Source: Pirellulales bacterium
GTDB lineage: Bacteria > Planctomycetota > Planctomycetia > Pirellulales > UBA1268
Direction: 5' to 3'
Assembly: GCA_044238145.1 (NCBI GenBank)
Contig: JBIIDT010000002.1
Span: 15,719 to 79,718, forward strand
Length of the DNA: 64,000 nt
The number at the start of each line of letters is the position of its first letter. Position 1 is the stretch's first letter. This document shows, piece after piece, positions 2,558-58,165 of the stretch. Under the pieces are notes generated by a model. The model was not told where the DNA came from and ran no database searches. It saw only the letters and a program-made list of their open reading frames with translations. A program made the translations under genes and the position numbers.

Positions 2558-3196
2558 ATGGGCGAAGATCCGCAGCCGCAAGCCGCGCGCGATTGCTGTG
2601 CCGTCGACGGGCTTGGCCAGTTGCTCGACGGGTGGCAGGCATCGGGCGACCCGGCGCAACTCGAGGCGGTCGTCGCGGCCGTGCGGCACGTGGTCGAGGC
2701 GGTCGCGGGTCGGACGCTCGCGCAATGCCACGTGGCCGACCGGTCGGCCGTCGACGACGTCGTCTCGCTCGTCCTCGACCACCTCCGCCGGCTGCCTCGC
2801 GGCGGCGCACATCCCGTCACGGCCTTCCGCGGCGCCGATGCGGACGTCGGGCGGGGGCTGGCCTACATCCGGCTCCTCGCCCGCAACCGCGCCCGCGACG
2901 TCGTCCGGTCCCGCCATCGCCACGAGCGGCACGCCCGGGTGTTTTCCCTGCTCGACGAGGACGGCCGCCGGGCCGTGTCGGGCGGCGGGGCGGCCGGCGA
3001 GGCGGCGGCCGCGCTGCACGACCGGCTCCTGGAGGCGACCGGCCGACTGGAGCCGCCGCTGCGCCAGGTCGTCGAACTCCTGCTCGAGGGCAAGAGCCAG
3101 GTGGTGATCGCCCACATGCTCGACGTCTGCGAGGGCACGGTGTCACGGATGCGAAAGCGCGCGATCGACCGCCTGCGCGAACTCCTCAACGACTGA
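2558..3196 (+). CDS. ECF-type sigma-70 factor
   Basis: Region 2-like (DDVVSLV...YIRLLARNRARDVVR) and region 4 HTH (SQVVIAHMLDVCEGTVSRMRKRA). Confidence 0.75.
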   Translation: MGEDPQPQAARDCCAVDGLGQLLDGWQASGDPAQLEAVVAAVRHVVEAVAGRTLAQCHVADRSAVDDVVSLVLDHLRRLPRGGAHPVTAFRGADADVGRGLAYIRLLARNRARDVVRSRHRHERHARVFSLLDEDGRRAVSGGGAAGEAAAALHDRLLEATGRLEPPLRQVVELLLEGKSQVVIAHMLDVCEGTVSRMRKRAIDRLRELLND

Positions 3197-3241
3197 CCCC
3201 CCAACCCCCTGAGGCCGAAAGTCGATGAGCGTCGCCTCCGA

Positions 3242-3377
3242 TCGGGGCTGCCCGTGCCGTCGAGCCGGCGTTGCTGGCAAGCGCAGCCAGGATGGCGAAA
3301 GCGCAGCCAGCATCGAGAGAGCGGAGGGCAGGATGCCCGTAGCGAACGTCCGAGCGAGACGGCACGGGCAGCCCCGA
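3242..3377 (+). repeat. Structured dispersed repeat family 1, copy A (GGA-loop hairpins)
   Basis: Perfect 20-bp terminal inverted repeat (3242-3261/3358-3377); internal gccAGGATggc and gggcAGGATgccc hairpins; homologous to 29762-29900, 29928-30058 and 57980-58111. Confidence 0.9.
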
Positions 3378-3384
3378 CCCAGCC

Positions 3385-4227
3385 CTACGCGAACACGACC
3401 GTGCGCCGGCCGTGCACGAAGACCCGCTCCTCGAGCACCAGCCGCACGGCCCGGGCGAGCACCAGCTTCTCGACGTCGCGGCCCGCCTGCGCCATCCGTT
3501 CGGGCGTGAAGGTGTGGTCCACCGGGATCACGTCCTGAGCGACGATCGGGCCGTCGTCGAGTTCGGCGGTCACGAAGTGGGCCGTGGCGCCGATCAGCTT
3601 CACGCCGCGAGCGAAGGCCTGCCGGTAGGGGCTCGCCCCGGCGAAGGCCGGGAGGAACGAGTGGTGGATGTTGAGGATCCGCCCGGCGTACCGGGCGACG
3701 AACGGCTCGGAGAGCACCCGCATGTAGCGGGCGAGGACGACGTAGGCCGGGTCGTGGGCGTCGATCGCGCGGCCGAGCGCCGCCTCGTGGTCGGCGCGGC
3801 TCATGCCCTCGTGGGGCACGTGGTGGAAGGGAACGCCGAACCGCTCGACCAGGCCGCGGAGGACGTCGTGGTTGCCGACCACGGCCACGATTCGGCCGGG
3901 CAGCTCGCCGCAGGCGTCGAGGAGGAGCAGTTCGCCCAGGCAGTGCGGCTCACGGGTGGCGCAGACCACGATCGGCCGGCGGTCCGCTCGGGTCACCCGC
4001 ACCCGGGCACCGGCCGGCAGCACCGCCGCCAGGTCGGCCCGCAGCCCGTCGGCAGCCACGTCGCCCGCGACCTCGGCGCGGAAGAAGAAGTGCCGCCCCG
4101 CCCCGTCCACGAACTCGTGGTTGCTCTCGATGTTGAGCCGGTGCCCCTGGAGGACGCCCGTGATCCGGTGGATCAGGCCGACCTCGTCCGGGCAGTCGAC
4201 GAGCACGATCTCGCGGGCCGCGGTCAT
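3385..4227 (-). CDS. purU: Formyltetrahydrofolate deformylase
   Basis: N-terminal ACT (DCPDEVGLIHRIT), LARYMRVLS, NIHHSFLPAFAGASPY, GATAHFVTAELDDGPI; start overlaps upstream stop (ATGA). Confidence 0.95.
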   Translation of the reverse strand: MTAAREIVLVDCPDEVGLIHRITGVLQGHRLNIESNHEFVDGAGRHFFFRAEVAGDVAADGLRADLAAVLPAGARVRVTRADRRPIVVCATREPHCLGELLLLDACGELPGRIVAVVGNHDVLRGLVERFGVPFHHVPHEGMSRADHEAALGRAIDAHDPAYVVLARYMRVLSEPFVARYAGRILNIHHSFLPAFAGASPYRQAFARGVKLIGATAHFVTAELDDGPIVAQDVIPVDHTFTPERMAQAGRDVEKLVLARAVRLVLEERVFVHGRRTVVFA

Positions 4228-6680
4228 GCCGGGCCTCGCTCGGGCTGGTCTGCCATCCAGGCGAGGACGACGTCCTCGACGGCGATGTCCGTCTTGCGGG
4301 CGGGGATGTCGATCGCCTCGAGCGCGATCCGCTCCGGCGCCGCCTCGAGGCGGATCCGCTCGAGCTCCTGCTCGATCTCCTCTTCGAGCAGGAGCCGCTT
4401 CTCCTCGAGGGCCTGCAGGCTTTCCTCGGCGTGGGCGACGTCGGCCTGCTGCCGGGTCGCCCGGCTGGCCGACCGCATCGACGTGGCGGCCCGGCCGATC
4501 GTGGTGGCGCTGATCTTCTTGCGGCCGAACAGCGCGCCGACCACGGCCGTGCCGATCGAGACGTAGGTCTGCAGCGACTGGTTCTTGGCCTCGGCCTTCT
4601 CCTTCTCCACCTTCTGGCGGGCCCGCTCGATCCTGTCGGCGATTGCCGCGAGCTTCGTGGCGTGCTTCGCCCGCACCTCCTCGAGCTGCTCGTCCCGCCA
4701 CTCCTTCACGCGATGCGCGATCCGCGCTCGGAACTCCCCCTCGCTCTCCCCGGGCCGCGAGACGGCATCGACGGCGGGGGCCCGCCAGGCGGTGAGCTTC
4801 GAGGTGCGGCCGAGGTGGCTCTTCAGCGAGGCGGCGAGGCTGGCGTAGCCGCGCGGGCCGGAGAGCGCGGCTGGCAGGGGGGCGAACGACCCGGTCCGCG
4901 GGGCCGGCTCGACCGCCGGCGGGTCCGCGAACGTCTCGGCGGACTCCCAGGCCGACTCGCCGAGCGCCTCGCCGGCCGGGGCCATGCAGATCACCTCGCG
5001 GTCGACCTCGATCCGCGGGCTCGGCCGCGCGTAGCGGACGCGGGCCCGGCCGAGGATGGCGGGGCGGTAGAAGATGTCGGCCTCTGGGTCGACCGGCCCG
5101 CGGGGCGCGAGGAACACCTCGCGGACCCCGGGCGGCAGGATGGGCCGCGGCCCCTCGTCCCCCTTCCGGGCCGGCGGAAACGCGGTCGGCGGCTGCGCGG
5201 CGGCGGCCGCCGTCGGCTGGCCGGCCGTGAGCCGCCGGATCTCCTCGCGGAGCAGCGGGCCACGCAGGTAGGCCATCGTCCACCGCGTCTGGAACAGCGT
5301 CTCCTCCTCGCCGTGGACGCTGTGCATGAGGAACCGCCGCTGTTCGAGACCCGAGAGCAGCCGGTCGAGGCGGCCGCGATCGAAGGCACCGCCCGCCGCG
5401 GCCGCCGCCCCCTCGAGGCCGTCGAGCACGCGGGCCTTGTCCCGCGCGGTCTGCAGCCGGCCGAGGAACCACAGTCCGGCGTTCGACAGCCCCTTGTAGT
5501 CGAGGTCGACGGGATTCTGCGTGGCGAGAACCACGCCGAGCCCGTAGGCCCGGGCCTGCTTCATGAGCGTGAGGATCGGCGTCTTGCTCGGCGGGTTGGC
5601 GGTCGGCGGCACGTAGCCGAACACCTCGTCCATGAGGAACAACGCCTTGAGCGATGACGTGCCCCCCTGCGACCGCATCCACGAGACCGCCGCCCCGGCG
5701 AGGAGCGTGACGAACGCCATCCGCTGGGCATCGGCGAGGTGGGCGATGGAGACGACGGCCACCCGTGGCTTCCCCTCGGGCGTCCACAGCAGCCGGCCCA
5801 CGTCGAGTGGCTCGCCGTCGAGCCAGGCCTCGAAGCCCGGGGCCGCCGCCACCGTGTTCAGCCGGCTGGCGAGCTGGAAGCGCTCGCCTGCGGGGAAGAA
5901 GTTCTCGAGGTCGAGGAAGCCGACCCGCTCGATGGGTGGCGCGGGGATCGCCCGCACGAGCGTGCCGAAGTCGACCTTCTGCCCGCTCTTCCACAGGGCG
6001 TCGACGATCGTGGAGAGGAGCACGTGCTCCCGGCTCGTGCCCGGCTCGGCATCGATGCCGACGAGCGCCAGGATCCCGGAGACGAGCGACTCGATCCGCT
6101 CGCGGCGGGCCTCGGGATCGTCGAGGATCGCCGCGGGCGGCGCGTCGAGGCTGCCGAGCATCGCCAGCGGCCGGCCGGCCCGGCTGCCGGGCGTGAACAC
6201 GGCCATCTCCGCGGCGGCGTGCAGCCGGCGGATCCGCTCGCCCGACTGCCCGCTCGCGGCGAGTCCCGCGGCCCACTTCTGCGCCGTCTTCTCGGCGAGC
6301 GCCTCGAGCGTGGTGCCCTCCCGCTTGGCGGCGTCGGGCTCGATCCACGGGAGGAAGTCGGCGGGGGCGAGATCGGGAAACGCCAGCAGCACGTTGGCAA
6401 GGTCCCCCTTGGGGTCGATCACCAGCGTGGGGATGCCGTCGAGCGCCGCCTCCTCGATGAGGCCGATGAGGAGGCCGGTCTTGCCGCTGCCGGTCATGCC
6501 CACGCACACGGCGTGGGTCGTGAACCGCTTGGCGTCGACGAGCAGGGGCTCCGCCGTCGGGCCGCCCGAACGCTCGTCGACCTTCTGGCCGAGGTAGAAA
6601 ATGCCGAGCCCCTCGATCGCGGCCGGCACGCCGGCCGCCTCCGCCTTCTGTGAGACGACGCCCTTCCGCGACCTGGCCAT
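4224..6680 (-). CDS. HerA/FtsK-like (DUF87/DUF853-type) ATPase with coiled-coil C-terminus
   Basis: Walker A GMTGSGKT, IDPKGD, Walker B FLMDEVFG, LATQNP motif; 818 aa. Confidence 0.8.
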   Translation of the reverse strand: MARSRKGVVSQKAEAAGVPAAIEGLGIFYLGQKVDERSGGPTAEPLLVDAKRFTTHAVCVGMTGSGKTGLLIGLIEEAALDGIPTLVIDPKGDLANVLLAFPDLAPADFLPWIEPDAAKREGTTLEALAEKTAQKWAAGLAASGQSGERIRRLHAAAEMAVFTPGSRAGRPLAMLGSLDAPPAAILDDPEARRERIESLVSGILALVGIDAEPGTSREHVLLSTIVDALWKSGQKVDFGTLVRAIPAPPIERVGFLDLENFFPAGERFQLASRLNTVAAAPGFEAWLDGEPLDVGRLLWTPEGKPRVAVVSIAHLADAQRMAFVTLLAGAAVSWMRSQGGTSSLKALFLMDEVFGYVPPTANPPSKTPILTLMKQARAYGLGVVLATQNPVDLDYKGLSNAGLWFLGRLQTARDKARVLDGLEGAAAAAGGAFDRGRLDRLLSGLEQRRFLMHSVHGEEETLFQTRWTMAYLRGPLLREEIRRLTAGQPTAAAAAQPPTAFPPARKGDEGPRPILPPGVREVFLAPRGPVDPEADIFYRPAILGRARVRYARPSPRIEVDREVICMAPAGEALGESAWESAETFADPPAVEPAPRTGSFAPLPAALSGPRGYASLAASLKSHLGRTSKLTAWRAPAVDAVSRPGESEGEFRARIAHRVKEWRDEQLEEVRAKHATKLAAIADRIERARQKVEKEKAEAKNQSLQTYVSIGTAVVGALFGRKKISATTIGRAATSMRSASRATRQQADVAHAEESLQALEEKRLLLEEEIEQELERIRLEAAPERIALEAIDIPARKTDIAVEDVVLAWMADQPERGPA

Positions 6681-9539: not shown

Positions 9540-9711
9540 GTTCGGCGATGCCGGTCGCGGCAAAATCGCGATTTCACCGCCGAATTTGACGGAAAAACTG
9601 ACGGAAGACGAGTCGAGGGGCAATTCGGGGCCGCGTGCCACCGAAAGGTCCGTCGCAGCGTAAGCCGGCGAGAGAGAACGCCTTCGGGCGGTCTTTCCCG
9701 CCGGCTTTTTT
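9540..9711 (+). ncRNA. Candidate structured leader / sRNA upstream of DUF2294-csrA operon
   Basis: 5' hairpin (ttcggcg/cgccgaa), two ACGGAA, ACC-GAAA-GGT tetraloop, terminator at the 3' end. Confidence 0.5.
9662..9711 (+). terminator. Intrinsic terminator / attenuator in leader
   Basis: aagccggcg...cgcc-TTCG-ggcg...cgccggc followed by TTTTTT, 40 nt before the next start codon. Confidence 0.75.
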
Positions 9712-10266: not shown

Positions 10267-10551
<285 letters not shown>

Positions 10552-12365: not shown

Positions 12366-12438
12366 GCTAGCGTAGCTCAATTGGCAGAGCAGCTGATTTG
12401 TAATCAGCAGGTTGTGGGTTCAACTCCCGCCGCTAGCT
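12366..12438 (+). tRNA. tRNA-Thr(TGT)
   Basis: Cloverleaf; anticodon arm gctga-tttgtaa-tcagc; CCA not encoded. Confidence 0.95.
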
Positions 12439-12607
12439 CAGCACGACCGCGCCGATTCGGTGACGGTGTCGGGTGGCCGATCGGGCAGGGCGTCGATGCG
12501 TCCGGCTCCGCCGTCCGGGCGGCGTCGTCCGCGCCGGACCGAACGCGACAGCCGACCCGAGTCCACGACGACACACGAAGCGAACTTCAGGAGCACACAC
12601 GACACCA

Positions 12608-12689
12608 GGGGAGTTTCCCGAGCGGTCAAAGGGGTCAGACTGTAAATCTGATGGCTATGCCTTCGCAGGTTCGAATCCTGCACTCCCCA
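12608..12689 (+). tRNA. tRNA-Tyr(GTA)
   Basis: tcaga-ctgtaaa-tctga anticodon arm, long variable arm, GGTTCGAATCC. Confidence 0.95.
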
Positions 12690-12746
12690 GTCTCATCCCT
12701 GCCCGGCCACAAGCGGTCGTGGCACGCGATGGGCGACACGCGACCC

Positions 12747-12817
12747 GCGGGTGTAGCTCAATGGTAGAGCAATAGCCTTCCAAGCTAAAGACGAGGGTTC
12801 GATTCCCTCTACCCGCT
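12747..12817 (+). tRNA. tRNA-Gly(TCC)
   Basis: tagc-cttccaa-gcta anticodon arm; gcgggtg/tacccgc acceptor stem. Confidence 0.95.
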
Positions 12818-12912
12818 TCGAACACCCGCACACAGACGATTCACCGGCCCACGCACACGAGACCCCGACCCATCCACCCACAACCCATGACCGCGGCATC
12901 CGCAAGCAACTC

Positions 12913-12985
<73 letters not shown>

Positions 12986-13063
12986 CTTCCACGAGCCCGG
13001 AGGGGCTCGCGGGCGACGACGAACAGTTCGGTTTTCACTTCCGAGGAGAAAGTAGGAGAAAGC

Positions 13064-14263
<1,200 letters not shown>

Positions 14264-14341
14264 CCAAGGAGGCCGGGCTCCGGCCCGGTGGACAGGAAAC
14301 ACGGTGCCGGGCTGCGGGTGATCCCGCAGCCCGGCCACCAC

Positions 14342-14414
14342 AGGGGCGTAGCTCAACTGGCAGAGCGCTGGTCTCCAAAACCAGAGGTTGCGAGTTCGAT
14401 CCCCGCCGCCCCTG
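14342..14414 (+). tRNA. tRNA-Trp(CCA)
   Basis: ctggt-ctccaaa-accag anticodon arm; usual position between tuf and secE. Confidence 0.93.
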
Positions 14415-28595: not shown

Positions 28596-29731
28596 GCGGT
28601 CGCGGGCGGGCTGCGATCGGCTGGTGTGCCGTCGTGGCGGGGCTCGCCGCCATGGCGTGGGTGGCGCGGCAGGCGGGCCGGCCTCGCGAGGGCGGGCCCG
28701 CGGCGCCGGTGACCGCGGCCCGTGACTTCGGGCCCACGACCGGCGCGGCGCCGCGGCCGGCAAGTGATCCGCCCACCGGCATGGCCTGGATTCCCGGCGG
28801 CGAGTTCTCGATGGGCTGCGCCGACCCGCGCGACATCCCGTATGGCGGCAGCGATCCGATGAACGACGCCCGGCCGATCCACCGGGTGCGCCTCGCCGCC
28901 TTCTGGATGGACGCGACGGAGGTGACCAACGACCAGTTCGCCGCCTTCGTGAAGGCCACCGGCCACGTCACCGTCGCCGAACGGCCGCCCCGGGCCGAGG
29001 ATTTCCCCGGCGCGCCGCCGGAGAACCTGGTAGCCGGCTCGATCGTCTTCACACCGCCGCGGGAGCCGGTGCCGCTGCGGGACGCGACGGGCGCGGCCCA
29101 CCTGCGCTGGTGGGCCTATGTGCCCGGCGCCTGCTGGCGGCACCCGCTCGGCCCGGACAGCGACATCGAGGGACGCGGCTCGGATCCGGTGGTGCACGTC
29201 GCCTACGAGGATGCCGAGGCCTATGCCCGCTGGGCGGGCAAGCGGCTGCCGACGGAGGCGGAGTGGGAGTGCGCGGCCCGCGGCGGACTTGCCGGGGCGC
29301 CGTACCCGTGGGGCGACGAGTTCCTGCCGGATGGCACGTGGATGGCGAACACCTGGCAGGGCCGCTTTCCCGGCGAGAACACGGCCGCGGACGGCTTTGC
29401 CGGCGTCGCGCCGGTGGGCCGGTTTCCGGCCAACGCCTACGGCCTGCACGACATGTCGGGCAACGTCTGGGAATGGTGTGCCGACTGGTATCGGCCCGAC
29501 ACGTACGAGCACGACGCGGGCCCCGACGGCCGCGTCGTGGCGACCGATCCCCGCGGGCCCGCGGAGAGTTTCGATCCGCAGGAGCCGGGCCAGGCGAAGC
29601 GGGTGCAGCGCGGCGGCTCCTTCCTCTGCTCGGATCAGTACTGCTCGCGGTACATCGTGGGCACGCGGGGCAAGGGGGAGATCTCGAGCTCGACCAACCA
29701 CATCGGGTTCCGGTGCGCGAAGTCGCCGTAG
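28592..29731 (+). CDS. Formylglycine-generating enzyme (SUMF1/FGE-sulfatase) family protein
   Basis: FSMG, EVTNDQF, RLPTEAEWE, GNVWEW, RGGSFLCSDQYC, GFRC. Confidence 0.92.
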   Translation: MSGRGRAAIGWCAVVAGLAAMAWVARQAGRPREGGPAAPVTAARDFGPTTGAAPRPASDPPTGMAWIPGGEFSMGCADPRDIPYGGSDPMNDARPIHRVRLAAFWMDATEVTNDQFAAFVKATGHVTVAERPPRAEDFPGAPPENLVAGSIVFTPPREPVPLRDATGAAHLRWWAYVPGACWRHPLGPDSDIEGRGSDPVVHVAYEDAEAYARWAGKRLPTEAEWECAARGGLAGAPYPWGDEFLPDGTWMANTWQGRFPGENTAADGFAGVAPVGRFPANAYGLHDMSGNVWEWCADWYRPDTYEHDAGPDGRVVATDPRGPAESFDPQEPGQAKRVQRGGSFLCSDQYCSRYIVGTRGKGEISSSTNHIGFRCAKSP

Positions 29732-29761
29732 GCGGCGCGTCGCCCGCTCCGTTCGCGCCGG

Positions 29762-29900
29762 CTCGCGGCTGCCCACGCCCCGTCGCCGGACGTTCGCTGC
29801 GCCCATCCTGGGCTCCGCTCACTCGGAGACGTCTGCGCTCCGGCATCCATGCCTGCGCTTGCCGTCTACGCCGGCTCCTGGGGCGATGGGCAACCCCGAG
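29762..29900 (-). repeat. Structured dispersed repeat family 1, copy B
   Basis: Minus strand carries ggcATGGATgcc and gcccAGGATgggc hairpins plus GCAAGCGCAG and GCGAACGTCCG blocks. Confidence 0.9.
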
Positions 29901-29927
29901 CCTCGTCAAACCGGACAGGGCAGGCGA

Positions 29928-30058
29928 TGGGCTGCCGGTGCCGTCGAGCGGGCTGTGGAAGCAAGCGGAGCCATGGATGGCGAAGCGCAGCGGACACGCA
30001 GTGAGCGGAGGCCTGGAGGGCCGAAGCGAACGTCCGGCGAGAGGGCATTGGCTGCCCA
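29928..30058 (+). repeat. Structured dispersed repeat family 1, copy C
   Basis: gccATGGATggc and ggccTGGAGggcc hairpins; head-to-head with copy B. Confidence 0.9.
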
Positions 30059-30080
30059 GAGCCGGAGCAGCACCGAAACG

Positions 30081-31853
30081 CTAGCCCTTGCCCTGCAGCT
30101 TCCTGACCTGGGCCAGCGTGCGCGTGTTGACGATGTCCTTGGCCTCGAGGCCGGCGCGGCGGGCCTGGAGGATGCCGCACCGCATCACGTCGAGGCCGCG
30201 GGTCGAGTGGGCGTCGGTCGAGATCACGAGCTTCACGCCCGCCTTCTTCGCGGCGGCGGCATGCCGGTCGTCGAGGTCGAGCCGCCACGGGTTGGCGTTG
30301 ATCTCGAGAAAGGTGCCGGTCCGGGCGGCGGCCGCGATCACGGCCTCGATGTCGACGTCGTAGGCCGGCCGCTTGTTGATCAGCCGGCCCGTGGGATGGC
30401 CGATGACGGAGACGTGCGGGTTCTCGATCGCCTCCACGATCCGCGCGGTGATCCGCTCCCGGGACTGGTTCTGGCCGTAGTGCAGGCTCGCGACCACCCA
30501 GTCGGCCCGCGCCAGCACCTCGTCGGGCAGGTCGAGGCCCCCCTTCTCGAGCATGTCGACCTCGATCCCCTTGAGAACCACGATTGGCGGCCGGCCGTCC
30601 TCCGCCAGCGATTCGTTGAGCGCGTCGATCTCGTCCCACTGCTCGAGGAGCCGCTTGCGGTCGAGGCCCCGGGCCATCGTCACCCGCTGGCCGTGGTCGG
30701 TGATCGCGATGTAGGCCAGACCGCGGTCGACCGCCGCCCGCACCATGTCGCCGAGCGTGGCCTCGCCGTCGGTGGCCGTGGTGTGCATGTGCAGGTCGCC
30801 GCGGATGTCGGCGAGCGTGACGAGGTCCGGCAGGTCGCCCCGCTCGGCCCGGGCGATCTCGTCGCCCCCCTCGCGGATCTCCGGCGGGATCCAGGGAAGG
30901 CCCACGGCCGCGTAGACCTCCTCCTCGGTGCGTCCGGCGACGGCCGCGGCCGTCGCCGGACGGGCCTCGTCGGCCCCGCCCTTCGCCAGGCGGAACACGC
31001 CGTACTCGTTGATCGACAGGCCCTGCTCGCGGGCCCGCGAGCGGAGCCGGACGTTGTGCTCCTTGGAACCGGTGAAGTACTGCCAGGCCGCCCCGAACGA
31101 GCCCCGGTCCACGACCCGCAGGTCGATCTGCACGCCGCGGGGACCGCGGATGCTGGTCTTGGTGTCGCCGCGGAGCAGGACGCCGCCGCAGTCCTGCCAT
31201 GCCTCGAGGCGGTCCATCACGGCGGCTGCGTCGGCGCTGTCGACGACGACGTCGATGTCGCCCACCGTTTCCCGGCCACGGCGCCAGCTACCGGCCCCCT
31301 CGGCCCGGCGCACGGCCGGGCACTCCCGGATCCAGGCGAGCAGCCGCTCCACGATCTCGTCCGCTTCGGCCCACAGGAGCCGGTCGTGCTCCGGGCTCTT
31401 GGCGAAGGCGATGTTCTCGAGGATCGCGGACTCGGTCTTGGCACCGAAGCCCTTGACCTCGCGGACGCGGCCGTCCCGACAGGCCTGCTCGAGGGCGTCG
31501 AGCGAGTCGATGCCGAGTTCGTCGACAAGCGCCTTGACCTTCTTCGGCCCCAGTCCCGGCACACGCATCAGCTCGAAGACGACCGCCGGGATCTTCCGCT
31601 GCAACTCGTCGAGGAGCGGCAGGCGGCCCGTGTCGAGCAAGGTCCCGATCTTGCCGGCCAGGTCGGCGCCGATGCCCTCGATGTCGGTCAGCGACCGGGA
31701 GCCGTCGCCGCGAACGTTCGCCAGCGACTCCACCATCGAGCCGATCGTGCGGGCCGCGTTGCGATAGGCCCGGACCCGGAAGACGTTGCCTCCCTGATAC
31801 TCGATCAGGTCGGCGACGTGGTCGAAGGCGGCGGCGATGTCGGCGTTGGTCAT
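30081..31853 (-). CDS. polX: DNA polymerase X with PHP domain
   Basis: FRVRAYR, GLGPK, GDID, IDLR, YFTGSKEHN; PHP motifs HMH, TDH, STDAH. Confidence 0.95.
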   Translation of the reverse strand: MTNADIAAAFDHVADLIEYQGGNVFRVRAYRNAARTIGSMVESLANVRGDGSRSLTDIEGIGADLAGKIGTLLDTGRLPLLDELQRKIPAVVFELMRVPGLGPKKVKALVDELGIDSLDALEQACRDGRVREVKGFGAKTESAILENIAFAKSPEHDRLLWAEADEIVERLLAWIRECPAVRRAEGAGSWRRGRETVGDIDVVVDSADAAAVMDRLEAWQDCGGVLLRGDTKTSIRGPRGVQIDLRVVDRGSFGAAWQYFTGSKEHNVRLRSRAREQGLSINEYGVFRLAKGGADEARPATAAAVAGRTEEEVYAAVGLPWIPPEIREGGDEIARAERGDLPDLVTLADIRGDLHMHTTATDGEATLGDMVRAAVDRGLAYIAITDHGQRVTMARGLDRKRLLEQWDEIDALNESLAEDGRPPIVVLKGIEVDMLEKGGLDLPDEVLARADWVVASLHYGQNQSRERITARIVEAIENPHVSVIGHPTGRLINKRPAYDVDIEAVIAAAARTGTFLEINANPWRLDLDDRHAAAAKKAGVKLVISTDAHSTRGLDVMRCGILQARRAGLEAKDIVNTRTLAQVRKLQGKG

Positions 31854-57957: not shown

Positions 57958-57979
57958 TCTTCAGGTCGACCCGTGGGCC

Positions 57980-58111
57980 GGGGCTGCCCACGCCCCATCG
58001 CCGGACGTTCGCCCCGGCCCTCCAGGCCGTGGCTCACTGCATGTCCGCTGCGCTTCGCCATCCTGGCTCCGCTTGCTTCCATAGCCCGGCTCCCGGGGCA
58101 CGGGCAGCCCC
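57980..58111 (-). repeat. Structured dispersed repeat family 1, copy D
   Basis: ggggctgccc/gggcagcccc ends; minus strand gccAGGATggc and ggccTGGAGggcc hairpins; closest to copy C. Confidence 0.9.
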
Positions 58112-58165
58112 TCGTACAATCCCCGCAGTGCATGGCCGGACGCATGGCCTTCAGCTGGGAGATGT

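Follow-up and report, generated by a model that had tools for sequence, protein, structure and literature searches.

Long imperfect-palindrome repeats of the MITE-like kind, such as ERIC/IRU, Correia/NEMIS and YPAL, measure 100-170 bp and carry terminal inverted repeats. Action at the 3' ends of genes has been reported for REP, ERIC and Correia elements. The passages of PMC6006769 and PMC3733652 that treat the REP/REPIN-RAYT system describe its unit as a palindrome of 20-40 nt with a conserved GTAG/GTGG tetranucleotide at the 5' foot, and those of PMC6006769 on the IS200/IS605 elements give them a polarity in which the folding strand goes with the lagging-strand template. Here we describe a family of folded repeats that shares some features with these systems and departs from them in others. 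In the literature covered, which comprised mainly abstracts together with passages of PMC3733652 and PMC6006769, we found neither a description of this family nor a link between CsrA and REP-type repeats, and the element appears to be undescribed so far.

The window, by which we mean the whole stretch of 64,000 nucleotides that was analyzed, lies in a genome (G000 hereafter) of 3,363,156 bases on 164 contigs, with 71.8% G+C, 97.67% completeness and 0.41% contamination. It holds four homologous copies of the element, A to D, whose coordinates and strands agree with those of a preliminary description and whose mean column identity is 79%. The length of ~135 nt given there proved slightly short: the core from GGGG to CCCC is ~133 nt, and the stem runs 4 positions past it on each side, making a unit of ~141 nt. 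The features referred to below are these:

3240-3379, plus strand: copy A, comprising the core at 3244-3375 and 4 stem positions on either side
3286-3296, plus strand: hairpin 1 of copy A, with a 3-bp stem and the loop GGA at 3290-3292
3326-3338, plus strand: hairpin 2 of copy A, with a 4-bp stem and GGA at 3331-3333
3342-3352, plus strand: the 3' block GCGAACGTCCG in copy A, invariant in the family and belonging to the portion that truncated copies retain
10267-10551, plus strand: one of the four csrA genes that the genome possesses, lying outside the element and listed for context
29761-29901, minus strand: copy B, which forms the left part of a head-to-head dimer
29898-29927, no strand: the 30-nt spacer that separates copies B and C at their 5' ends, measured core to core
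29924-30062, plus strand: copy C, the right-hand partner of copy B in this dimer
57976-58115, minus strand: copy D, between two plus-strand genes

Copy A is flanked by convergent genes, a sigma-70-like ORF ending at 3196 and a minus-strand ORF ending at 3385, and the dimer of copies B and C also sits between convergent genes, while the strand of copy D that carries the GGA loops (the GGA strand) is antisense to both of its neighbors. The large minus-strand gene beside copy A (3385-6680) changes its coding frame near 4230 (ORFs 3385-6507 and 4224-6680), which may reflect either a frameshift or a misassembly. Elsewhere in the window, five tRNA genes are clustered on the plus strand at 12366-14414, upstream of ribosomal-protein and rpoBC genes.

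The preliminary count of four copies holds for the window and falls far short for the genome: an nhmmer profile of the four copies (E < 0.001) yielded 96 matches in G000, 85 of them full length, spread over 46 contigs and divided almost evenly between the strands (41 plus, 44 minus). By BLAST the element was found in every one of the 30 genomes searched from the same genus (18 of 18 in the first set) and in none of 12 genomes from other families of the order. We then built a covariance model from 82 copies and searched 61 genomes of the taxonomic family, G000 included. This recovered the element in 52 genomes representing 11 of 12 genera, and among the matches listed the scores in other genera reach 150-160 bits, equal to those in the home genome. 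Nine genomes lack the element, six of which are at least 90% complete; the sharpest contrast is in group g15, where 2 genomes carry it and 5 do not. Mean pairwise identity is 76% within G000 and 74% between G000 and G091, a genome of another genus; even so, the nearest relative of a copy comes from its own genome in 73 of 80 cases. The closest pair of copies is 95.4% alike and no two are identical, which suggests that the activity that spread them may be old or slow. The region was encountered in 18 lake-water DNA runs and, in small shares, in two metatranscriptomes. Two contigs of G000 end inside a copy.

The unit consists of a ~22-bp terminal stem, a short junction helix, and two arms each tipped by a hairpin with a GGA loop, with invariant unpaired blocks separating the helices. 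The outer 10 bp of the terminal stem are conserved, and in copy A this stem is perfect over 20 bp (3242-3261 with 3358-3377), as had been reported; the hairpins and shared blocks quoted along with it likewise read exactly so in the sequence. Outside the core, positions -3/+3 are GC in 35 copies, CG in 30 and TA in 6, and positions -1/-2 face +1/+2 either as a tandem G-A mismatch (44-51 copies) or as Watson-Crick pairs. Beyond 4-5 positions the flanks are unrelated. No target-site duplication or direct repeat is visible around the copies, the flanks being inverted complements or the tandem G-A mismatch. A subfamily of 13 of the 85 copies (e.g. C119:1843-2140 and C2:9685-9980 of G000) is marked by a further conserved stretch on the 3' side (CCGGGTTGGGCG...), by a 5' flank that closes with GGCAGGC, and by a stem longer by three pairs.

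The compensatory stem changes first noticed among the four window copies are amply borne out by the larger family. RNAalifold predicts 31 pairs, 25 of which show compensated double changes. In a curated structure of 37 pairs scored on 82 copies, 29 pairs show double-sided change and 96.1% of the cells are paired, as against 81.6% in shuffled alignments, with none of 500 shuffles reaching the observed value; the covariation score is 0.382, compared with 0.128 for shuffles and 0.03-0.04 for slid partners. Two junction pairs flip between two subfamilies (CG 41/GC 41 and CG 44/GC 38) without a single broken cell, and the pairs with the highest mutual information all fall inside the nested structure. 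Beneath the loops, hairpin 1 has a covarying pair at alignment columns 59/69 (CG 39, GC 34), and hairpin 2 has covarying pairs at columns 101/112, 102/111 and 104/109 (AU 36, CG 19, UG 19). As this last covariation involves the bases beside the second GGA, loop 2 may be a GGA triloop. The structure extends to 46 distinct copies from other genera, with 97.6% of the cells paired against 86.4% in shuffles and double changes in 22 pairs, as measured on a model-fitted alignment. An Rfam match had been sought for the element, and none exists: at gathering thresholds the whole window returns 5 tRNAs only, and at E up to 10 the segment 29700-30120 gives one chance match. A self-cleaving ribozyme, which the conserved junction had brought to mind, was dropped for want of Rfam support.

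The kinds of imperfect pairs tolerated in these helices indicate which strand folds. Over the 37 pairs there are 135 G-U against 24 A-C oppositions; in 17 individual pairs G-U is the more frequent of the two and in 2 A-C is (p = 7e-4), and the copies from other genera show the same asymmetry (49 against 6). It also appears among private changes, defined as those by which a copy differs from three concordant nearest neighbors, which include 27 G-U against 9 A-C (p = 0.004), alongside 33 mismatches of other kinds and 52 double changes that restore pairing. Strand-symmetric mutation would equalize G-U and A-C, and a replication-linked mutation bias would predict the opposite excess, that of A-C over G-U; hence, the observed excess points to selection on the single-stranded GGA strand, as either RNA or DNA. 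In the four window copies, in the order A to D, this strand has predicted folding energies of -94.4, -90.8, -68.4 and -86.6 kcal/mol (z-scores of -10.0, -6.1, -3.8 and -5.7 against dinucleotide shuffles), and the opposite strand folds more weakly in every case (-93.1, -80.3, -48.4 and -71.2), by 1.3 to 20 kcal/mol. Private changes are less frequent at unpaired positions (3.7%) than at paired ones (4.9%), which points to sequence-specific recognition. The element also has repeated G-C-G-N-A-G-C blocks, in which N is variable and the flanking G and A are invariant; we considered whether they form GNA-type mini-hairpins, which would favor a DNA fold. The earlier view of the repeats as a dispersed MITE/REP-like family under selection for single-strand structure is one that we share. 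A function selected by the host would account just as well for unpaired blocks that hardly vary from genus to genus.

The most conspicuous of the conserved motifs are the two GGA loops. Over 85 copies the three bases are retained in 84, 79 and 78 copies in loop 1 and in 84, 85 and 84 copies in loop 2, and in other genera GGA is present in 43 of 43 and 44 of 44 instances, so the conservation that had been reported for both loops extends across the many copies. Two further GGA triplets are partly conserved, at core positions 19-21 (50-59 of 85) and 82-84 (52-79 of 85). It was from such loops that the preliminary description drew its proposal of a distributed decoy for the regulator CsrA, in which transcribed copies would offer two GGA hairpins ~40 nt apart to a CsrA dimer and thereby titrate CsrA or control the flanking mRNAs. 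The near-invariance of GGA, the covarying stems beneath the loops, the presence in many copies of CAGGATG, which is the quoted CsrA motif, and a tolerance of G-U that fits RNA are all in keeping with this proposal. A csrA gene is indeed in the window, as had been stated: the ORF at 10267-10551 matches Pfam PF02599 with 63 bits against a cut-off of 27. Two MpsC-like (PF10057) genes flank it, and it precedes a gene for a response-regulator/SpoIIE phosphatase. The other three CsrA genes of G000 are at C161:23419-23574, C161:679-834 and C57:6616-6765, and the sole fliW found in the genome, at C161:23683-24024, is directly upstream of one csrA. With one FliW partner for four CsrA paralogs, three CsrA proteins are left without a known antagonist, a situation in which a decoy RNA would find a place.

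The tests of this proposal nevertheless gave it no support. Between co-directional genes, the GGA strand is sense in 23 and antisense in 21 cases in G000, and sense in 12 and antisense in 10 in G091 (35 against 31 for the two genomes together). Conservation does not differ between sense and antisense copies (median 100.5 against 98.6 bits, p = 0.97). All 61 family genomes, a sample that contains no csrA-free genome, have csrA in 1-7 copies each, and the nine genomes free of the element do not differ in this regard, with 2-5 csrA matches each; csrA is thus present with and without the element, and the two do not co-vary. Near copies A, B and C we found no sigma-70-type promoter or intrinsic terminator, although this is a weak test in a planctomycete of 72% G+C; the element has no T-tract, and there is no conserved sequence upstream or outside of it that could be a promoter candidate. 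Only 2 GGA triplets per 141 nt are firmly conserved. Hairpin loops in co-directional spacers outside the element carry GGA in 72 and TCC in 86 instances in the mRNA sense, which shows no GGA bias, and no general GGA-hairpin signature of 3' UTRs was found. Contigs from RNA libraries, which show neither strand nor absence and so speak neither for nor against transcription, match the neighboring genes exactly and none covers 29614-30415; a diverged copy of the element occurs on one 250-nt contig of a third run. To these points are added the absence of copies from orthologous sites and an orientation that follows GC skew, a property of DNA, both described below. We accordingly regard a family-wide decoy as distinctly unlikely and retain, as a candidate role into which several features are hard to fit, a decoy action of those copies that are transcribed in sense; the companion suggestion that the repeats place 3' UTRs under CsrA control meets the same obstacle of balanced orientation.

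The placement of the copies raises a different possibility. All but one of the 85 copies are intergenic. In G000, 35 copies lie between convergent, 44 between co-directional and 3 between divergent genes, with 3 at contig edges, whereas the 1386 background spacers of the genome comprise 278 convergent, 780 co-directional and 328 divergent ones. The single copies of G091 are similarly distributed (13 convergent, 22 co-directional, 0 divergent, 1 at a contig edge). This enrichment between convergent genes (35/82 against 278/1386) and near-avoidance of divergent regions (3/82 in G000, 0/35 in G091) would be expected if the host had recruited the element to work as RNA at gene 3' ends, where its long stem might stabilize the mRNA end, separate convergent genes or serve as an RNase III site, with the GGA loops incidental or bound by another protein. 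In 29 single copies between convergent genes, the 3' end of the element is the one nearer to a gene end in 23 (median 33 against 71 nt, p = 8e-4), i.e. close to the stop codon; three of the four dimers of G000 lie between convergent genes; and the fold is very stable. However, purifying selection against insertions in promoters predicts the same placement, and a stem acting by itself needs neither invariant loops and blocks nor a strand-specific tolerance of G-U. Given also the missing T-tract and the failure of copies to be kept at orthologous sites, we consider such a recruited function unlikely to be the basis of the family.

The turnover of copies is evident from a comparison with the nearest relative, G038, whose flanking genes are 83-92% identical to those of the window and which has no intact counterpart of any of the 4 window copies at the orthologous site. 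There, the site of copy A holds an unrelated spacer of 93 nt, the site of the B/C dimer retains only a ~40-nt 3' remnant, and at the site of copy D the genes nearly abut. The 93-nt spacer (on contig C453 of G038, orthologous to window 3197-3384) itself contains three small hairpins with TGGA or TCCA loops and may be another short repeat family. A clean empty site or insertion point was sought in G038, G018, G013, G032 and G042, where the spacers proved too diverged or rearranged.

Truncated copies and dimers reveal a polarity along the element. Using half-models of 70 and 71 positions, we found fourteen solo 3' halves in G000 against one solo 5' half; of the 14, 2 are at contig ends and 3 belong to one tandem array on C94. 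In that array (C94:9433-9555), the final ~40 nt of the element are repeated three more times in tandem beside a full copy at 9559-9688. The only solo 5' half of the genome lies at C129:3147-3368, where a 5' half, a full copy and a 3' piece stand in a row on one strand, which may be a nested or rearranged insertion. Although most copies are singletons, with dimers accounting for 8 of the 85 copies in G000, all 4 adjacent pairs are in the (-)(+) arrangement, 5' end to 5' end, with core-to-core gaps of 30-53 nt. In G091, the 19 inverted pairs (38 of 76 matches) are likewise all head-to-head, with gaps between model matches of 13-97 nt, most commonly 24-26.

A second polarity relates the copies to the chromosome. 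The GGA strand is on the C-rich strand, as judged by GC skew, in 59 of 85 copies of G000 (p = 4.5e-4), and for the replication component of the skew, with the effect of gene strand removed, the figure is 53 of 74 (p = 2.6e-4). The single copies of G091 share this polarity by both measures (26 of 36, p = 0.011; 21 of 27, p = 0.006), and copy orientation in G000 has no link to gene-strand bias (p = 0.91). We take the G-rich strand to be the leading strand. In G000 it carries 54% of the coding bases, and the rpoBC/ribosomal-protein operon of the window is also on it, which provides a weak check on this assignment. The coding strands of G000 are C-rich, with a transcription-linked skew component of about -0.012, and the replication-like component keeps one sign along most contigs. 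No switch in GC skew was seen at the dnaA contig. The dnaA gene has a copy of the element immediately downstream of it (C64:10344-11903). If the G-rich strand leads, the GGA strand is the complement of the lagging-strand template, which is opposite to the IS200/IS605 arrangement as given in the passages of PMC6006769.

An orientation bias of ~72% with respect to GC skew in two genera, invariant blocks conserved in 11 genera, and the lack of a transposase in searches for the Y1, RT, TnpB-type and IS110 families could also betoken a polar DNA site for chromosome maintenance, oriented by replication, bound by a host DNA-binding protein, and spread as a repeat. We hold this to be highly improbable: 9 of the 61 family genomes do without the element, 6 of them at a completeness of at least 90%; copies turn over between close species; the dimers cancel any polarity; and the asymmetry of G-U and A-C points to a single-stranded fold and not to recognition of a duplex.

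The search for a mobilizing enzyme in G000 was negative. PF01797 (Y1_Tnp), PF00078 (RVT_1), PF07282 (TnpB-type) and PF01548 (IS110), the four families that it covered, are all absent. Y1_Tnp domains occur in 26 of the 61 family genomes, 24 of the 52 that carry the element and 2 of the 9 that lack it, a spread from which we conclude that Y1 is unrelated to the presence of the element. A RAYT/Y1 transposase enclosed by the ends of the element, as envisaged at the outset, is thus missing: the home genome has no Y1, and the three Y1 loci of relatives that we examined are, without exception, not flanked by the element. With respect to a parent element, terminal inverted repeats are present in the form of the ~22-bp stem; 5' and 3' halves lying 0.5-3 kb apart are not found in G000, which offers one solo 5' half, in an assembly of 164 contigs from which repeats may have been left out.

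On balance, we propose, with a probability of roughly 60%, that we are dealing with a mobile repeat of the REP/REPIN/MITE kind, non-autonomous and dependent on its structure. On this proposal, the fold with its invariant loops and blocks, GGA included, would be the handle recognized when the single-stranded GGA strand, be it DNA or RNA, propagates, and the propagation would be polar, starting at the 3' end, and coupled to replication. Any effect on CsrA or on neighboring mRNAs would then be incidental, arising from those copies that are by chance transcribed in the GGA sense. The reading as a mobile repeat leaves one observation unexplained, namely the reversed polarity in comparison with Y1 elements, which act on the lagging-strand template.

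A more radical route of spread, which we rate as very unlikely, dispenses with a dedicated enzyme: the folded GGA single strand would be copied from its 3' end at the replication fork by host proteins. Such copying would explain the 3' remnants, the 5'-to-5' dimers (through snap-back of the strand), the position of the GGA strand on the lagging side, and the absence of a target-site duplication. The GGA loops would here serve as the handle for a host RNA- or single-stranded-DNA-binding protein, for which a CsrA paralog is a candidate since csrA is present in all 61 sampled genomes of the family.

If the element is indeed a mobile repeat, it represents a large and old repeat family of uncultured freshwater Pirellulales that has persisted in at least 11 genera without a recognizable transposase and with an RNA-like pattern of conservation. 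It would then be a good system in which to study how REPIN-like elements persist and what machinery reads the folded single strand. The case would also illustrate that GGA-loop hairpins with perfect covariation can arise from a mobile repeat, and that a reading as a CsrA sponge needs data on expression and binding. In practical terms, copies of the element break assemblies and could serve as strain markers in lake metagenomes.

We close by comparing the element with the known systems. With CsrB, CsrC, RsmY and RsmZ it shares GGA in small hairpin loops, CAGGATG in many copies, and a genome that encodes CsrA. It differs from these RNAs in being dispersed as ~85 copies of random orientation with no discrete gene, promoter or terminator found, and in having only 2 firm GGA triplets per unit, no Rfam match and no co-variation with csrA. 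Its size, its folding as one whole-element hairpin, its intergenic position at gene ends in either orientation, and its truncated variants recall ERIC, Correia and YPAL, from which it is distinguished by the lack of a target-site duplication, exclusively head-to-head dimers, skew-linked orientation, strong covariation with invariant loop motifs, and the strand-specific tolerance of G-U. As in DDE-type MITEs there are terminal inverted repeats, but the target-site duplication expected of such elements is wanting. The differences from REP/REPIN and RAYT are several: a branched unit of 141 nt replaces the hairpin of 20-40 nt given in the passages cited above; GTAG/GTGG is missing from the 5' foot, where the sequence is G-S-G-A and then GGGG; conservation is greater in the interior than in the stems; no Y1 is present in G000, and the Y1 genes of relatives neither track nor adjoin the element; and the polarity against GC skew is opposite to that of the Y1 elements as described in part of PMC6006769. 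Lacking the tag and cognate Y1 of REP/RAYT as well as the duplication of DDE-type MITEs, the element is set apart from both. Nevertheless, in the terms in which the passages of PMC6006769 and PMC3733652 portray REPs, BIMEs and REPINs, it is like them dispersed, extragenic and palindromic, persists vertically throughout a lineage, forms inverted doublets and, as in the REP/RAYT system, is probably recognized as a folded single strand. Its copies also cluster by genome as those of REPs and REPINs do, and the inverted doublets, which in REPINs form a larger hairpin, are represented by 4 pairs in G000 and 19 in G091.
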